In this document: positions 22,681 to 31,608 of the stretch, in pieces
Layout of the letters: every line of letters begins with the position of its first letter
Position numbering within the stretch: the stretch's first letter is position 1
Assembly (NCBI GenBank): GCA_050115495.1
Contig: JASFQK010000021.1
Coordinates: 1 to 64,000 of the forward strand
Direction of reading: 5' to 3'
Source: Phycisphaerae bacterium
Lineage (GTDB): Bacteria > Planctomycetota > Phycisphaerae > UBA1845 > Fen-1342
DNA: 64,000 nucleotides
Notes under the pieces: model-generated
The model's input: the letters and a program-made list of their open reading frames with translations, nothing else
What the model was told of the DNA's origin: nothing
Database searches by the model: none
Translations under genes and position numbers: made by a program

Positions 22681-23580
22681 ATGGCACGCGTCAAAAGGTC
22701 CTCCGATCGGCGTCGGCACTGCTTCGGCGCGCACCTGTCCGTCGCCGGCGGGCTGCACCTCGCGATCGTCCGGGCCCGCGAGATCGGCTTCGACACCGTC
22801 CAGGTCTTCGTGAAGAACCAGCGGCAGTGGCAGGCCCCGCCGCTCGACCCCGACGAGCAGGCCCGCTGGCTCGATGCCCTCGCCGCCGGCGATTTCGGCC
22901 CGCCCATCGCCCACGCGTCGTACCTGGTCAACCTCGCGTCGCCGAACCGGACACTGCTCGCCCGCAGCCGGGCGGCGTTCGCCGACGAATTGCAGCGCTG
23001 CGACGCCCTGCGCATTCCGTGGCTCGTCGTGCACCCCGGGTCGGCGACGGGCTCCTCGCCGACGGCGGCCCTCGCTCGCGTCGCCCGCACGCTCAACCGT
23101 ATCTTCGACCGGCTACCGGGCCTGCACACCGGCGTACTGCTCGAAACCACCGCCGGCCAGGGTACGTCCCTCGGGCGCAGTTTCGCGGAATTGGGCGAGA
23201 TTCTGGCACATGTCGAACAGCCCGACCGCGTCGGCGTCTGCCTCGACACCTGCCACCTCTTCGCCGCCGGCTACGACCTGCGCGAACCGTCGGCCTATTC
23301 GGCGATGGTCGCCGAAGCCGACCGGGAAGTCGGGCTCGGGCGGGTGCGGTGCTGGCATTTGAATGACTGCAAGGGTGCGTGCGGCTCGCACCTCGACCGC
23401 CACGACCACATCGGCCGCGGCCAGATCGGCAACCGCGGCTTCACCAACCTGCTCACCGACCCCCGCTTCGCCGGCGTTCCCATGATCCTCGAAACGCCCA
23501 AAGGCGAAACCCCCGCCGGCCGCGACTTCGACGCGCTGAACCTGTCCCGCCTGCGGCGATTGGCGAAGCAAGCGAGGTGA
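22681..23580 (+). CDS. nfo: Endonuclease IV (AP endonuclease)
   Basis: GAHLSVAGG, HASYLVNLAS, VHPG, LETTAGQG, CLDTCH, HLND, DRHDHIG.G, ILETP. Confidence 0.95.
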   Translation: MARVKRSSDRRRHCFGAHLSVAGGLHLAIVRAREIGFDTVQVFVKNQRQWQAPPLDPDEQARWLDALAAGDFGPPIAHASYLVNLASPNRTLLARSRAAFADELQRCDALRIPWLVVHPGSATGSSPTAALARVARTLNRIFDRLPGLHTGVLLETTAGQGTSLGRSFAELGEILAHVEQPDRVGVCLDTCHLFAAGYDLREPSAYSAMVAEADREVGLGRVRCWHLNDCKGACGSHLDRHDHIGRGQIGNRGFTNLLTDPRFAGVPMILETPKGETPAGRDFDALNLSRLRRLAKQAR

Positions 23581-23592
23581 GAGAAACGCGCG

Positions 23593-23664
23593 TAGCGGCC
23601 GGTCTCCGTACCAAACGTGTAGCGCCGGCCCCCCGTGGCCGACGTCTTCGCGAAGCCGTCAGCC
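23593..23664 (+). repeat. Outer inverted repeat, left copy (72 bp, REP-based)
   Basis: Reverse complement of 29169-29240 with 2 mismatches. Confidence 0.9.
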
Positions 23665-23713
23665 ATCAGCCGTCAGCCGTCAGCAAGAAGCCATGAGCCG
23701 TGAGCCGTGAGCC
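23657..23713. repeat. 7-mer tandem repeats (cgtcagc / gtgagcc)
   Basis: cgtcagc catcagc cgtcagc cgtcagc ... atgagcc gtgagcc gtgagcc. Confidence 0.7.
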
Positions 23714-23751
23714 GGAGCAGTCGTTTCCCGGCCTACGGCGCCGCTCCGACT

Positions 23752-24040
23752 GCTGGTGTCTCTTCGCCGCGGAACCCGCCCCGTCTCTCGCGTCGCCGCG
23801 TTCGTTCGCCAGTGTGGCACCTGCCAATGGCTGGTGATTCCCACCGCCGTGAAGCAACCGTATGGTTTCGTCACCTGTTCCACTGCTCCACGGTTCACCT
23901 GCTCTCGCGCAGCGCAGCCCGCGCAGCGGGCGACGGACTCTAGCCCCGGGTGAGCGATCGGCCGCCCGCCGGCCGATCGCGCAACCCGGGGTCAACGCCC
24001 ACCCCCTGCCCCCCCAAGCCCCCGAAGGGGGCGGCGGAAA
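23752..24040 (+). repeat. Inner long inverted repeat, left copy (~290 bp)
   Basis: Colinear with the reverse complement of 26583-26867, including a perfect 38-nt block 23915-23952 / 26667-26704. Confidence 0.9.
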
Positions 24041-24310
24041 GAGCTGCCGTAGCGTCTCCCGGCGCGCAGCGCAACCCCTGGCGCAATCGCTCCCCCGACC
24101 TTGCCTCCGCGCAGCGCTTGCCAGATGTCACGATCGGCGTGACCCGCTATAATGCCAAGTTGTGTTCTGTGCCCGCTCATTTGCGTGGCTTGCTCAGTCC
24201 TCTATGCGGGGTGAACTCGCAGCGCATGCATGTGGGCGCTGCCCGTGCAGAACGAAGGTCACGGCGAGAGGTGACAGCACGAGACTCCTCCCCCACGGAG
24301 GCAGCGCACG

Positions 24311-25179: not shown

Positions 25180-25331
25180 GCCACGCTAGTTCCGCTTGCC
25201 AGCCGCGCGAGGCAGTACGTGCTGAGGCTGCCGTAGACCGACAAAGACGTGTGGCACGCGAATCGCCGTTCACGATCGACACTGCTTGCCGTGGCGATGA
25301 AACCGCAGCAGCTCACGGAGGAGAGACGACA

Positions 25332-26498
25332 ATGTCTGTGGCACAGAAACCCGCTGTATTCGTGAGCTCGACATGCTACGACCTCAAGCAAGTTCGCGAG
25401 AACCTGCGTGAGTTCATCGCGGGGGCCGGCTACGATCCGATGTTGTCGGAGCACGACTCGTTTCCCGTGGATCCCTCCACCGACGTGATCGAGAACTGCC
25501 GCAAGGCAGTTGGCGCACATGCCGACATCTTTGTGCTAATCGTGGGGAACCGACACGGATCGGTCGCAGAGTGCGGGCGCTCAATCACGAACATCGAGTA
25601 TCTCGCCGCACGCGCCAGGGGGCTCCCCATCTATGTATTCGTGCTGCGCTCCGTGCTTGACGCTTTCCGCACCTGGAAGAAGGCCCCTGAAAACCGGTTC
25701 CCCGACATCGAGTCGCCCGAAGTCTTTGAGTTCATTGACTCAGTCCAGTCGGCAGGCCACGCGTGGATTCGCCCGTTTGACACTGCTCAGGACATAACAG
25801 GGGCGTTGCGCCGCCAGTGGGCTCATCTGTTCTGCGAGTGCCTGCACCTCTGGACAAAATCCAACGACAGCCCGCTTGAGGGATTACCCACAGACATCAG
25901 CCTCGGAGCGTGGCGGCTGAGCATCGAGCGCCCACGTGCGTGGGAGATCCGGCTGCTCGATCGTGTGTTGCGCGATAAATTGACCGAAGCGCAGGAGGCG
26001 AAGTGGGACCTCCAGAATGGTCTCTCGCTCGGTCCCCGGCAACGTCAAGAACGAAAGCAGGTCATGGATTGGGTCATGACGCAGTTCGCGGAGCTCGTGG
26101 ACACGGTGCGCGCACTGGACAAGCTACTGAACACCACATGGCCAGAAGCGGCCGCGGCTGGCAATCCCCGGAAGATCATCTATGTCGCCAAGCGGGTGGG
26201 TGACATCTACCGGACGGCGATCGACTGGTCCCTGCAGTTCCGGAGAGTCCACGTCGATGATGACTTCCGCCGGCTGCTTGGCACCGCCTCCCGGGCGTCG
26301 TGCAGTTGCGTCGACGTGATCGAAGCTCTGAGCACGCAGATTTCTCATGCCGTGAAGCAAACTCTCGACACTCCAATCAAGGAGGGCGAGACTGTGAGTC
26401 CGACGATCAGGGTACGGCTGGATTTTCCGGCTGGCCTGATGGAGGAACTTGAAGAGGAAACAGTGCGCGTGGCCGCGCTGGGTTGCAACGAACCCTGA
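25332..26498 (+). CDS. DUF4062 domain-containing protein with unknown helical C-terminal domain
   Basis: VFVSSTCYDLKQVRE.L, C...V...ADIFVLIVG.RHGS, SITNIEY..A; RBS ggagg. Confidence 0.8.
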   Translation: MSVAQKPAVFVSSTCYDLKQVRENLREFIAGAGYDPMLSEHDSFPVDPSTDVIENCRKAVGAHADIFVLIVGNRHGSVAECGRSITNIEYLAARARGLPIYVFVLRSVLDAFRTWKKAPENRFPDIESPEVFEFIDSVQSAGHAWIRPFDTAQDITGALRRQWAHLFCECLHLWTKSNDSPLEGLPTDISLGAWRLSIERPRAWEIRLLDRVLRDKLTEAQEAKWDLQNGLSLGPRQRQERKQVMDWVMTQFAELVDTVRALDKLLNTTWPEAAAAGNPRKIIYVAKRVGDIYRTAIDWSLQFRRVHVDDDFRRLLGTASRASCSCVDVIEALSTQISHAVKQTLDTPIKEGETVSPTIRVRLDFPAGLMEELEEETVRVAALGCNEP

Positions 26499-26582
26499 AG
26501 GGGCCATCTGGGATCGGCTGGCAGAAGAGGAGATTCCCCGCGTTCGACGGCCGACACGGGGGGTCGGCTGCTACACGCTTCC

Positions 26583-26867
26583 TTCCTCCGCCCCCTTCGG
26601 GGGCTTGGGGGTGAGGGCGGGACGGGTCCCCGGGTTGCGCTGGCCCGCTCAGCGCGGGCGGCGCTGCACCCGGGGCTAGAGTCCGTCGCCCGCTGCGCGG
26701 GCTGTGCTGCGCGGGAGCAGGTGAACCGTGGAGCAGGTGAGCAGGTGACGCAACCGTGCGGCTGCTCCACGGCGGGTGGGACCACCAGCCATTGGCAGGT
26801 GCCACACCAGGGAACAAAGGCGGCGACGCGAGAGACGGGGCGGGTTCCGTGGCGAAGAGACACCAGC
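26583..26867 (-). repeat. Inner long inverted repeat, right copy
   Basis: Reverse complement of 23752-24040. Confidence 0.9.
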
Positions 26868-26900
26868 GATCGGGGCAGGGTCGCAGGCTGGAATCCACAG

Positions 26901-26968: not shown

Positions 26969-27687
26969 GTGTGTCCGTTCTCACGTTTGTGGCGTGTCGG
27001 TTTCTCGGCAGAGGTGGGCGCTGGGGCAGGTTGTCGCCGGGGCAGGAGGGTGGCGAGGAGGCGGGAGAGCCAGGAGCGTGGCGGCGGCTGGGGGTGGTTG
27101 GCGGGGTGTGGTGGCGGTTGGCGGCCGTTCTGCTTCCAGATCGTGTAACGCTGTGTGAAGTGCTGGCCGACGATGAAGACGATTCGCCGAGCCAGGCGGG
27201 TCCAGGCGTCGTCGGTTACGCCGTAGTGGCTGCCCCTGGCGCTGGCCATGCTGTAGACGTATTGCAGGAGATCGTTTTCGTCGATGTCGATGAAGCCGGC
27301 GTCCATCAAGCAGCGACGGTGCGTGCGAAACGTGTTGCCGCTCTGGATGCGTTCGCGGAGGCTAAGACTGGTGCTATCGATCACGTCGCGGCGGATGGTG
27401 CAGGCGATGCTGACGATGAGAGCTTCGAGGGCGGAACGGGCCTCGTTGATGGCGGCGTGTCCGTAGCCGTCGGCGGCGGTGGCGTCGGATTGGTGGAGGT
27501 GGTAGGCCATCGTTCGCAGGTCGAGTTCGGGGTGTGGTTGGAGGTCGTGGAGCAACGCCGTCAGGGCGAAGGTGCCCGTTTCGGTCGGCGTAGGACCGGG
27601 CGTTTCCGGCGTGGCACCGCCGGCGGGCACGGCCCGCCCTGCAGTGGCTTCGGCGAACGCGTCAGGTTCCATGTAACCCTCGTTCAC
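26965..27687 (-). CDS. Hypothetical protein, HEPN/Abi-C-like helical domain
   Basis: GTG start overlapping upstream TGA (GTGA) with RBS gaggt; AAINEARSALEAL...Y.MAS.RGSH pattern reminiscent of HEPN-fold proteins. Confidence 0.55.
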   Translation of the reverse strand: MNEGYMEPDAFAEATAGRAVPAGGATPETPGPTPTETGTFALTALLHDLQPHPELDLRTMAYHLHQSDATAADGYGHAAINEARSALEALIVSIACTIRRDVIDSTSLSLRERIQSGNTFRTHRRCLMDAGFIDIDENDLLQYVYSMASARGSHYGVTDDAWTRLARRIVFIVGQHFTQRYTIWKQNGRQPPPHPANHPQPPPRSWLSRLLATLLPRRQPAPAPTSAEKPTRHKRENGHT

Positions 27688-28052
27688 CTCGGTGACCTCT
27701 TCCGAGTTGTGGACCGAGTGCCGGCACTCGGTTTGGGCTTGCCGGCCGGCTTCTCTTTGCGCGCCGTCGCCGCGCGCCGCCGCCGGCGGTGACACTGCTT
27801 GACGCGCTCCATGGCCGGGGCGTTGAGCAGGAGGCCGAGGCATTCGGCGATGATGCTGAAGAGCGTGTCGCGGTTGGCCTCTTGCAGCGTGCGTTCGAGG
27901 TGGGCAGGCAATTCGTGGTAACGCAGCCCCTCGTCTCCGATGACCTCTGTAAGGGCAATCAGGGCGCCGATGAAGCGTTTGTCGCTGAGCGGCAGGGCCT
28001 TCCACATCGCCCGAAACGCCTCTTCGTCCAGCTTCGGCGTCTTGGCCATCAC
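27684..28052 (-). CDS. Hypothetical protein (122 aa, basic C-terminal tail)
   Basis: RBS aaggag; helical; coupled to downstream gene. Confidence 0.65.
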   Translation of the reverse strand: MMAKTPKLDEEAFRAMWKALPLSDKRFIGALIALTEVIGDEGLRYHELPAHLERTLQEANRDTLFSIIAECLGLLLNAPAMERVKQCHRRRRRAATARKEKPAGKPKPSAGTRSTTRKRSPR

Positions 28053-28137
28053 GCGTTCTCCTTCCTACTGTCGGACGCCAATGTGCAGGGATGGCGACGC
28101 CGTTGGAGACGGCGGAACGTCGAAAGCTGATGGCACC

Positions 28138-28330
28138 AAAAGGAAACGGGCGCCACCCGATGCGCTAAAGGTCGCGTATGGGCCGTCAAGCCAACCGCGC
28201 GACCCCGCGCACCGGGCAGCGCCCGCATGATAAGCGCGGACACTGACGCGGGCGAGGCTGCTTGGCTGAGTTGGCACACGTAGCGCCCGTACCACGGGCG
28301 TGCAGACACGTGTGTTGACGGCCCATACAC
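28138..28330 (-). ncRNA. Structured leader RNA resembling phage C4/CI antisense-attenuator elements
   Basis: 19-bp stem closed by G-U pairs only on the minus strand, bulge, 7-bp stem, U-rich tail; apical sequence is complementary over 14 nt to 28315-28328. Confidence 0.55.
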
Positions 28331-28464
28331 CAAGGCGTATTTTGCCAGCGGCGGATCACTCTTCTTGCCGCTGCTTGGCTGTGTGGATCGGCGGCCGGTC
28401 GAGAGCCGGCTCCGGATCATCGCTCTTTGGATAGTGTCGCACATGGATGGGCGAAAGTCAATGG

Positions 28465-28487
28465 AAAGTGATTATATAAGTCACTTT
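28465..28487. promoter_or_regulatory. Palindromic operator between divergent genes
   Basis: aaagtga-N9-tcacttt, AT-rich, 20 bp upstream of the HTH gene. Confidence 0.6.
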
Positions 28488-28507
28488 TTGTTTCTTCAGG
28501 ATCACTA

Positions 28508-28786
28508 ATGATTATCCTCAAACTCCGAGAGGCCATGGAGAGATACCGGCGAAGGACAGGCAAGCGCATGACGTATGAGCGCTTGGCAGAGCTTACAGGC
28601 ATCGCAAGAGGGACGTTACATCAGATGGGCAGGCGCCTGGATTATCATCCGACGCTCACCAACGTGGAGAAGTTGTGCGCTGCCCTGGAGAGCCCGCTCG
28701 ATGGAATGATCGAGATCGTTCCGGACCCGCCGAAGCCCAAGCCGAAGCGCCAGGCGAAGAGCCCCAAAGCCGCGAAGCGGCGATAG
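28508..28786 (+). CDS. Cro/CI-type XRE helix-turn-helix regulator
   Basis: MTYERLAELTGIARGTLHQM...PTLTNVEKLCAAL. Confidence 0.85.
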   Translation: MIILKLREAMERYRRRTGKRMTYERLAELTGIARGTLHQMGRRLDYHPTLTNVEKLCAALESPLDGMIEIVPDPPKPKPKRQAKSPKAAKRR

Positions 28787-29168
28787 TCAATAGCCCGGCG
28801 GCGTAAGCCCCGGGTACCCGTCCATAACCACTCCAATTCAGAGCCGCAGCGGGGCGACAGACTTCCCTATCGCCCCGCTGGGGCTCAATGAGGGGTACGT
28901 GGGTCTCGGTCCAAGGGCTCACACCCTTGGCTACTGACTGCCGCCGCGTTGCGGCGAGGAGCGCGGAGGCTGCGACGCGGCGATAGTCTTGCAGGCCGAG
29001 CCGTGCCCGCCGGCGGGTGGGTGCCGGGGGAATTGGCGGGAACGACCCGCCCCACGCGTCTCGCCAAGACGTCCGGCATCCCGGCGCGCCGGGCGACGGC
29101 GCCGGTCCCGTGGCGAACGAAAGACATGCCGGCGCCTTAGAGCTTCGGCATGCCACACGCCAGCTCAA
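28787..29168. repeat. BIME-like cluster of REP hairpins
   Basis: tagcccggcggcgtaagccccggg; cagcggggcga/tcgccccgctg; ccaagggctcacacccttgg; gccgtgcccgcc/ggcgggaacgacccgccccac; gacatgccgg..cggcatgccacac. Confidence 0.7.
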
Positions 29169-29240
29169 GGCTGACGGCTTCGCGAAGACGTCGGCCACGG
29201 GGGGCCGGCGCTACACGTCCGGTACGGAGACCGGCCGCTA
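29169..29240 (-). repeat. Outer inverted repeat, right copy (72 bp)
   Basis: Reverse complement of 23593-23664 with 2 mismatches. Confidence 0.9.
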
Positions 29241-29258
29241 TCGCCCAAGCATCCAAAT

Positions 29259-29308: not shown

Positions 29309-29524
29309 GTGAAATCGCGATTGGATATCAAAGTCGAAGTTGGCGCGCGTGTGCGTGAGCTGCGCGAGGCCCGAGGGTGGTCCCAGGAAGAACTTGGCCA
29401 ACGCAGCGACCTTCACCGGAATTACATTGGCGGTCTTGAGCGCGGCGAGCGCAACGTTGGCATAGAGACGATCGCCAAGCTAGCTCGTGCTCTTCACGTT
29501 CGCCCTCGCGAGCTCCTACCGTAG
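29309..29524 (+). CDS. XRE HTH protein resembling restriction-modification controller (C) proteins
   Basis: G.RVRELR...GWSQEELG..S.LHRNYIGGLERGERNV....I.KLARAL. Confidence 0.8.
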   Translation: MKSRLDIKVEVGARVRELREARGWSQEELGQRSDLHRNYIGGLERGERNVGIETIAKLARALHVRPRELLP

Positions 29525-29619
29525 CGACGTCAGCCAGGAAACTCTGCATCCCCCCCCACCATTACCCCGCATCGAAGAAGTGTGTTCGCCCGGAAGCTTC
29601 GCCGGCACCGCCCGCCCAA

Positions 29620-29679
29620 GACGGCCGGCACGGAGACCGGCCGCTACGAAGGACGTCCGACACGGAGGTCGGACGCTAC
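29620..29679. repeat. Two GTAG REP hairpins
   Basis: cggccggcacggagaccggccgctac and gacgtccgacacggaggtcggacgctac, identical to copies at ~15429 and ~13947. Confidence 0.8.
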
Positions 29680-31309: not shown

Positions 31310-31372
31310 ATAGGGGTCCAGGTTCGCAATCCGGTGCCATCAGGTGTGGGGGACGGATATCGATTTGCGTTC

Positions 31373-31469
31373 GACGGCCGACATGGAGGTCGGCCGCTAC
31401 GCATTTGTCGCCCGTCGCGAGAACGGGCGTGTGTCGCCATCGACGTCGGCCACGGGGGGCCGGCGCTAC
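31373..31469. repeat. Two GTAG REP hairpins
   Basis: gacggccgacatggaggtcggccgctac; gacgtcggccacggggggccggcgctac. Confidence 0.7.
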
Positions 31470-31608
31470 AGAAGGCGGGGTAATCCGGGACAGTTAATCG
31501 GTTTTTCGCTTACGTGGCGGGCGAGTTTCTGTCTATCATACGGCCTCGCCGCCAGACGTGGCGAGGCACCGGGACACTCGGCGGCTTCATGTACCGGATC
31601 ACATACTC

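Follow-up and report, generated by a model that had tools for sequence, protein, structure and literature searches.

Organization of the cassette and its insertion site

The window analyzed here is a single stretch of DNA of 64,000 nt from a genome that we label G000. At 28138..28381 on its minus strand lies a leader with a long hairpin, which is the focal copy of the element described below. The leader is part of a cassette in which a divergent HTH gene is followed by a promoter-like site, a target domain arranged as P1-T1-P2-T2-P1′, an anti-terminator arm, a long stem with a coded loop, a U tail, gene A and gene B. The features, in window coordinates, are:

28508..28786, plus strand: Cro/C1-type HTH gene, divergent, likely the cassette repressor
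28433..28461, minus strand: predicted sigma70-type promoter (−35 at 28461-28456, −10 at 28438-28433)
28370..28381, minus strand: upstream copy of a 12-nt repeat, focal copy only
28329..28336, minus strand: P1 5′ strand, closing the target domain (partner 28267-28260; covariation)
28315..28328, minus strand: T1, a target half (partner, the 3′ half of the loop)
28275..28314, minus strand: P2, a hairpin between the target halves, variable in length and sequence
28269..28276, minus strand: T2, a target half (partner, the 5′ half of the loop)
28260..28267, minus strand: P1 3′ strand, overlapping the second copy of the 12-nt repeat
28236..28257, minus strand: anti-terminator 5′ arm (partner 28226-28201; excludes the long stem)
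28198..28226, minus strand: near-invariant switch strand shared by two folds, serving as 5′ arm in the terminator-like stem or as 3′ arm in the anti-terminator
28177..28197, minus strand: variable apical loop of 21 nt (the code), its 5′ half reading T2 and its 3′ half T1
28146..28176, minus strand: 3′ arm of the terminator-like stem, 99.5% of alignment cells paired
28138..28145, minus strand: U-rich tail, imperfect; T-rich in most homologues
27684..28049, minus strand: gene A, 121 aa
26965..27672, minus strand: gene B, 235 aa, HEPN-like (predicted)
27617..27643, strand not applicable: REP-like palindrome within the cassette; the motif has 182 matches in the genome
23581..29675: island of about 6 kb between nfo and queG, holding the cassette and a DUF4062 gene

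The promoter agrees with the consensus at 8 of 12 positions in the focal copy, where the −10 box is weak, and at 10 or more of 12 in 27 of 39 homologues. A promoter-like site on the plus strand (28315-28343, 9 of 12 positions), looked at in the focal copy only, coincides with T1; the loop on the same strand as the target itself supplies the complement of that target.

In the relative G005, nfo and queG are separated by 176 bp with no island between them, an adjacency seen in one of five relatives, so that the 6-kb stretch at the focal locus is an insertion. In G001 (C13:12228-18966) the two genes are also convergent and lie 6.7 kb apart, with no match to the RNA, possibly reflecting a different insert at the same site. 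The DUF4062 protein of the island is encoded at 25212-26498 on the plus strand, convergent on gene B, and the C43 and C73 copies of the element likewise have DUF4062-TPR genes beside them. Abundant intergenic repeat families, with as many as ~90 matches by blastn across the genome, occur at both ends of the island (23550-23700, 29100-29250, 29600-29670 and 31350-31480), and the island contains an inverted duplication of 319 nt that is 84% identical (26580-26891 and 23728-24042). Just past the HTH gene there are two matches to Acido-Lenti-1 (RF01687), at 28768-28814 on the minus strand and 28911-28956 on the plus strand; a short motif taken from these two matches occurs six times in the genome, five of them within 1.5 kb of three cassettes. 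A second HTH gene, of XRE type, lies at 29309-29524 on the plus strand with a promoter-like site on the opposite strand (29307-29279), and second HTH genes of similar kind adjoin several other cassette copies. No tRNA or tmRNA was found in the 64-kb window.

Structure of the hairpin

An earlier note on this DNA had described a 19-bp stem with three G-U pairs, a 7-bp upper stem, a 21-nt loop and a U tail, and all of these parts were recovered. The arms at 28147-28165 and 28207-28225 are 84% Watson-Crick paired, the remaining three pairs being G-U on the minus strand, and an extra G-U pair (28226/28146) extends the long stem to 20 bp. The upper stem has 7 bp, or 9 bp if two G-U pairs are counted, and the U tail (28145-28138) is imperfect. 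The hairpin folds with −64.8 kcal/mol on the minus strand (z −7.0, reached by none of 200 shuffles) and −52.5 kcal/mol on the plus strand.

The perfect 14-nt complementarity that the note reported between the apical region and an upstream site is likewise present (28176-28189 with 28315-28328). Dinucleotide shuffling of the 296-nt leader produced an exact inverted repeat of at least 14 nt in 81 of 2000 cases, which is marginal alone; what establishes the complementarity as real is the covariation of loop and target across copies. The 12-nt direct repeat is present as well, at 28257 and 28370 (9 of 2000 shuffles), but a role for it at the level of the family was rejected, because the upstream copy occurs in only one of 38 homologues, the focal one; in one computed fold it is an alternative partner for the 5′ strand of P1. 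The note had proposed a search for covariation among homologous leaders, and in that search loop-target complementarity proved to be kept by compensatory change. Absent from the note were T2, the P1 and P2 stems that present T1 and T2, the anti-terminator and 14 further copies in the genome.

A covarying loop-target code

The alignment consisted of 39 distinct copies, 15 from G000 and 24 from outside it, after one duplicate had been dropped. P1 encloses a large internal loop made up of the strands T1 and T2 on either side of the variable hairpin P2, and the 3′ part of the leader is made up of a near-invariant arm, a near-invariant long stem, a variable loop of 21-24 nt and a U-rich tail. Across the 39 copies, both sides have changed in 11 of 13 pairs between T1 and the loop, with 93.6% of alignment cells paired, and in 9 of 9 pairs between T2 and the loop, where pairing is only 65% because of register shifts. 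Both sides have also changed in 8 of 9 pairs of P1. None of 500 shuffles reached the covariation values of T1/loop, T2/loop or P1. The junction of the loop carries YUNR in 32 of 39 copies, which we take to be a U-turn-like motif.

Pairing is specific to the copy. Cognate T1 duplexes have −21.2 kcal/mol versus −12.6 for non-cognate ones, and cognate T2 duplexes −12.2 versus −5.9 kcal/mol, differences reached in none of 100,000 permutations in either case. The own target ranks best for 28 of 39 loops overall and for 12 of 15 within G000. The focal copy is predicted to show some cross-talk with copy C10. In held-out copies from G185 and G186 the corresponding energies were −21.0 versus −13.3 and −12.2 versus −5.8 kcal/mol; this set has 15 rows, including one spurious reverse-strand match, and was left after 20 of 35 raw matches lacking the anchor, mostly reverse-strand self-matches of the stem, had been dropped. 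A downstream target was sought within 400 nt on the 3′ side in the 35 of 39 copies in which this could be done, and there was no cognate preference (−23.2 versus −23.5 kcal/mol, own site best in 1 of 35). The target domain of the focal copy folds no better than shuffles (z −0.08).

The 39 copies carry at least 35 distinct loop codes. Where identical codes occur in different genomes, they accompany similar HTH proteins (identity 0.84 versus 0.60). In the nine shared-code pairs, which represent four lineages only, the HTH proteins are 78-95% and the gene A products 14-50% identical, and P2 has drifted by 8-16 edits in eight of them. The focal copy has a counterpart at another site in G185, with a loop 2 edits apart and an HTH protein 82% identical. 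The same code, to within 2 edits, was found in 0 of 178 pairs within genomes and in 13 of 1200 pairs between genomes, which is not significant (P=0.16), and at 4 edits the exclusion of shared codes within genomes is a trend only (P=0.06); in these counts each metagenome contig was taken as its own genome, one copy was unparsed and two loops were mis-parsed. Loop and target are mismatched in 3 of the 15 G000 copies. The loops of the mismatched copies L008 (G000 C42), L015 (G000 C32) and L047 are within 2 edits of the codes of L134, L040 and L005 but stand behind a different target, so that these copies are either recombinants across the invariant linker or assembly chimeras. That the structure and the code of this RNA switch family are real is, in our assessment, nearly certain.

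Competing terminator and anti-terminator folds

The anti-terminator arm (28257-28236) pairs with the 5′ strand of the stem over about 21 bp, and 95-98% of alignment cells are paired. Both sides have changed in only 2 of 21 pairs because the region hardly varies. The anti-terminator fold was better than that of shuffles in all five copies tested (z −2.9 in the focal copy, −3.9 to −4.6 in four others), and it and the long stem are mutually exclusive. Stand-alone anti-terminators, better paired and lacking the 3′ arm of the terminator, occur at L056:267-339, L063:679-751 and L064:1494-1566 and 1696; these hairpins are found shortly before gene A, inside units flanked by inverted REP-like palindromes.

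In the computed cis fold, the T2/loop and T1/loop helices nest outside the anti-terminator and extend it. Equilibrium, pseudoknot-free folds with the target free put the energy of the read-through (ON) state minus that of the terminated (OFF) state at a mean of +0.9 kcal/mol, close to balance, with ON winning in 14 of 39 copies. With T1 and T2 blocked, the mean rose to +6.0 kcal/mol and OFF won in 38 of 39, again in pseudoknot-free folds and with no block of an unrelated stretch for comparison. In the focal copy the difference went from −2.3 to +5.7 kcal/mol and the computed probability of the terminator from 0.06 to 1.00. When the growing transcript is folded, the anti-terminator dominates until the last ~10 nt of the stem and yields earlier if the target is blocked.

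Gene A starts 78-460 nt past the stem, so that occlusion of its ribosome site is not available as a mechanism. An ATG lies in the anti-terminator loop in 31 of 39 copies, but the frames that it opens range from 10 to more than 260 codons and none is conserved as a leader peptide. Leader-peptide attenuation or translational coupling was accordingly rejected as a feature of the family, an overlap with the start of gene A being found in the focal copy only. There, a 59-codon frame from this ATG (28049-28228, minus strand) ends overlapping the start of gene A, probably by chance. The distance to gene A and the unconserved frame together argue for control of transcription rather than of translation, and transcription attenuation by the leader is likely. 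The proposal of the earlier note that an RNA switch resides in the leader of a two-gene operon is supported.

Genes A and B

Gene A encodes a helical protein, a short form of a family of 110-200 aa. It matched no family or fold, and its model is of low confidence (pTM 0.39, best Z 4.3). The gene B family has 101 close homologues and 245 clusters; gene B matched no Pfam, PADLOC or NCBIfam family, and 30 distant homologues are likewise without a Pfam family. The model of gene B is a helical bundle (pLDDT 82), with its best structure matches to 2hsb (Z 9.8, rmsd 4.6, 118 residues aligned) and to Gifsy-1 HepS (9oik, Z 9.6), although for a helical bundle Z below 13 is not decisive. In Foldseek, four of the top six rows were titled HEPN/HepT, all at E≥0.13, and a comparison with viral folds gave nothing at E≤0.001. 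Among named Atlas clusters, Abi_C comes nearest at 0.89, which is no more than a lead.

The catalytic motif of HEPN RNases is R-x4-6-H. Gene B has Y-x3-S-x4-H in place of R-x4-H, with S144 in 80 of 82 sequences, H149 in 81 of 82 and K or R at 146; the invariant R79 sits outside the S-x4-H motif. A canonical catalytic motif was rejected on account of the serine at the expected position of the arginine. The earlier note described the operon as HEPN-like; gene B is so in its best, though not decisive, structure matches and lacks the canonical arginine, and we regard gene B as a HEPN-like effector candidate of an uncatalogued family.

Distribution and mobility

The genome G000 holds 15 copies of the element, of which the other 14 are 79-91% identical to the focal copy over the core. 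They share an arrangement in which a small, divergent regulator gene is followed by a sigma70-like site, the leader and then genes A and B; several of the copies run into a contig end, and copy C51b has no payload. At G000:C51:116-2802 two cassettes stand in tandem, the first with a degenerate switch and without payload, the second with two copies of gene A and no gene B called. Outside loci were gathered with gene B as bait (21 from genomes and 30 from metagenomes), and the full RNA lies upstream of gene B in 25 of these 51. The names attached to gene B loci are mostly Phycisphaerae. Full-length RNA matches outside G000 were found in G185 (about 10), G186 (about 11) and G187 (about 3). A search with the RNA model returned none of 150 class-level and none of 150 phylum-level genomes (overlapping samples, stricter filters), a DNA search of 40 relatives gave a single match of 27 nt and nothing else, and viral contigs and phage and plasmid records gave no match.

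In its patchy and multi-copy occurrence, the cassette behaves like a mobile element. No integrase was found next to the G000 copies examined. REP-like palindromes, some of which belong to the cassette as fixed components, occur at a distance of at most 2.5 kb from 13 of the 15 copies versus 8.8% of random sites, and the genome has six Y1_Tnp matches. Mu-like genes adjoin 3 of the 25 outside loci (L059, L042 and L044), and an integrase lies 9 kb from one other, L155. In L059 (4322-7647) a cassette consisting of HTH gene, leader, two copies of gene A and gene B is followed after about 110 nt by a Mu-like transposase (E 1.5e-61) and a transposition ATPase (E 4.6e-36) on the same strand, and this cassette may be the early or immunity region of a transposable prophage. 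In L042, gene B is followed by an ATPase fragment, and in L044 there is a Mu-like head gene 3.2 kb further on. Homologues of the L059 transposase comprise one distant protein in G000, on a contig without a cassette, and a short, weak match in G187; none was found with this query in G185 or G186. L044 and L046 share an identical leader and HTH start but have different gene A types (a 182-aa and a 120-aa form), so that the payload is swapped downstream of the terminator.

Among 34 hand-picked neighbors, 10 matched models of defense effectors, with no background rate for comparison; the matches are to DarT, DarG, type IIG restriction, SIR2, ThsB, PD-T7-1, PDC-M19A, PDC-S60 (twice) and type IV restriction.

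Proposed mechanism and alternative explanations

Our preferred reading, of moderate confidence, is that the leader is a self-silencing transcription attenuator that acts in trans through a code-specific loop RNA. During synthesis the anti-terminator would form first, as in the computed folds, and pairing of loop and target in cis would extend it and make read-through competitive. If loop RNA from an earlier transcript blocked the target, termination would follow, as the folds with T1 and T2 occupied predict. Terminated transcripts, or the hairpin cut from them, might then build up and pair with leaders that carry the same code and are still being transcribed. Entry of a cassette into a naive cell would give a burst of expression of genes A and B, followed by stable, code-specific shut-off and immunity to cassettes of the same code, as in P4. 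Weighing against self-silencing are the imperfect U tail, the weak −10 box of the focal copy and its target domain that folds no better than shuffles, the mismatched G000 copies, the scant covariation of the anti-terminator, and the computed win of ON in only 14 of 39 copies with the target free.

The strongest alternative, which we nonetheless consider doubtful, is an attenuator working in cis only, in which loop and target pair within one molecule and the private codes reflect compensatory drift of an ordinary helix; its trigger could be the kinetics of folding, a protein (gene A or HTH) or stress. All of the covariation is equally expected from a cis helix, the computed ON fold holds the loop-target helices in cis, and the exclusion of shared codes within genomes is not significant. 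Several observations argue against it: (i) P1, conserved and covarying, keeps the target open within an internal loop, and a terminal loop of 21 nt with YUNR serves as the key, a design that is typical of intermolecular recognition. (ii) In 8 of the 9 pairs that share a code, the adjacent cis stem P2 has diverged by 8-16 edits while the code has stayed frozen. (iii) There is neither a conserved leader peptide nor an invariant ligand-like loop.

The hairpin could instead be an RNA antitoxin, similar to those of type III toxin-antitoxin systems, or a substrate of a double-strand RNase, with pairing setting the stability of the RNA and not its termination. A near-invariant 20-bp stem with fixed G-U pairs could well be a site of protein binding or cleavage, gene B is HEPN-like and the U tail is imperfect. 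The invariance of the stem, however, is already accounted for by one strand that pairs in two folds, and the association is loose in both directions, with gene B loci lacking the RNA and an RNA copy lacking gene B (C51). Type III systems have tandem repeats of the RNA, which are not present here, and we find this explanation improbable. Slightly more remote still is a signal at the level of DNA, in which a REP-associated Y1 transposase would recognize or mobilize single strands and the code pairs would guide insertion or excision; it would suit the patchy, multi-copy occurrence with no integrase beside the G000 copies examined, the REP-like palindromes near 13 of 15 copies, the six Y1_Tnp matches and the empty site in G005, but the conserved G-U pairs, strand asymmetry, promoter-like site, U tail and competing anti-terminator point to RNA, and the structure occupies the interior of the cassette, away from its ends.

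Building on self-silencing in trans, a broader and tentative reading, whose parts we think unlikely to hold all together, is that the cassette would be an autonomous RNA-coded immunity unit, defined by HTH type and 21-nt code, that either came from transposable prophages or was passed on to them. The terminated leader would be its own repressor and would gate an uncatalogued HEPN-like effector, one chromosome would operate at least a dozen orthogonal, bistable attenuators that need no protein, and the payload would fire once the RNA pool was lost through transfer to a new cell or phage-driven RNA decay. If this were true, the unit would represent an RNA antitoxin acting through transcription attenuation from its own transcript.

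Should the prediction of self-silencing be true, planctomycetes would hold a second, structurally independent solution to RNA immunity of the P4/C4 style, one that uses the loop of the terminator itself as antisense key. At least 35 loop codes on a near-invariant scaffold make the rules of specificity, cross-talk and action in cis versus trans directly testable in vitro. The natural codes would also be a ready set of orthogonal attenuators, which the available part of PMC3753616 names as a bottleneck of synthetic biology. In addition, the findings point to an uncatalogued HEPN-like family, and to an integrase-free cassette that reaches 10-15 sites beside defense genes by an unexplained route.

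Comparison with known RNA systems

No description of this planctomycete leader RNA was found in the literature searched. The available text of bioRxiv 10.64898/2026.10.21.760802 has no passage on planctomycetes, HEPN or attenuators; its supplements, which were outside the search, may list the motif.

Gene B resembles HEPN and Abi_C proteins in that it is predicted to be a helical bundle with its best matches among HEPN proteins, and differs from them in having no Pfam, PADLOC or NCBIfam match and S in place of R.

In the pT181 and pIP501 attenuators, binding of an antisense RNA to the nascent leader prevents the anti-terminator, and an intrinsic terminator forms; the antisense RNA comes from the opposite strand and is fully complementary. 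The release of a terminator by antisense blocking of an anti-terminator is what we predict here. The computed folds contain the same conserved parts, a mutually exclusive anti-terminator and terminator with a U tail, although the tail is imperfect and the anti-terminator covaries little. In contrast to those systems, the antisense sequence lies on the same strand, and the complementarity amounts to about 21 nt split over two strands of an internal loop. Engineered orthogonal attenuators of the pT181 type exist, as stated in the available part of PMC3753616.

The earlier note had likened the element to P4 CI and the C4 RNAs, and our results bear out the logic of that comparison but not membership. 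The families considered were P1/P7 C4 (RF01695), c4-2 (RF02944) and the c4-a1b1 target, as they are covered in the accessible parts of PMC5320573, PMC2864571 and PMC5737381. The Rfam models of C4, c4-2 and CI gave no match at gathering score in the window and were not among the six matches at E≤10 in 27900-28600; genome-wide searches with RF01695 and RF02944 were blank, and their positive controls were equally silent. The hairpin is an unbranched rod with one 21-nt loop and not a three-stem cloverleaf with two antisense loops. Membership of C4, c4-2 or CI was therefore rejected for want of a model match, of the fold and of a downstream target. Common to both is an antisense element and its target on one transcript, with specificity set by covarying two-part sequences. 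RNAs of the C4 type are further marked by RNase P processing to a species of ~77-80 nt that acts in trans, and by a place in the immunity region of a prophage or satellite.

According to the parts of PMC5320573 at hand, C4 RNA folds into three stem-loops, carries a′ and b′ in different loops, is processed by RNase P and partially occludes a ribosome-binding site, and group 1 sRNAs of A. baumannii, which are C4 RNAs, occur in many copies in one chromosome. As far as these descriptions go, the leader RNA shares with C4 a two-part key whose variable letters set specificity and the possibility of multi-copy chromosomes. It differs in that both halves are read by a single contiguous loop of an unbranched rod, and in the distance of 78-460 nt to the next start codon.

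P4 CI RNA, in the excerpts of PMC4825925 and PMC3632133 that were available, derives from the leader that it silences and pairs with seqA upstream and seqC downstream, leading to termination. On that account, the two systems are alike in having an antisense element and its target in one leader, with premature termination upstream of the silenced genes, and in having a structured RNA as upstream target. CI has targets upstream and downstream and is a processed RNA of the C4 type, whereas here both halves of the target are upstream and the terminator-like stem itself provides the key, in its loop. Moreover, a separate anti-terminator arm competes here for the 5′ strand of the stem, and there is no match by sequence or model. 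The leader RNA probably works like P4 CI or P1 C4 without belonging to either, and the family is an uncatalogued RNA switch of the CI/C4 kind with a different fold.
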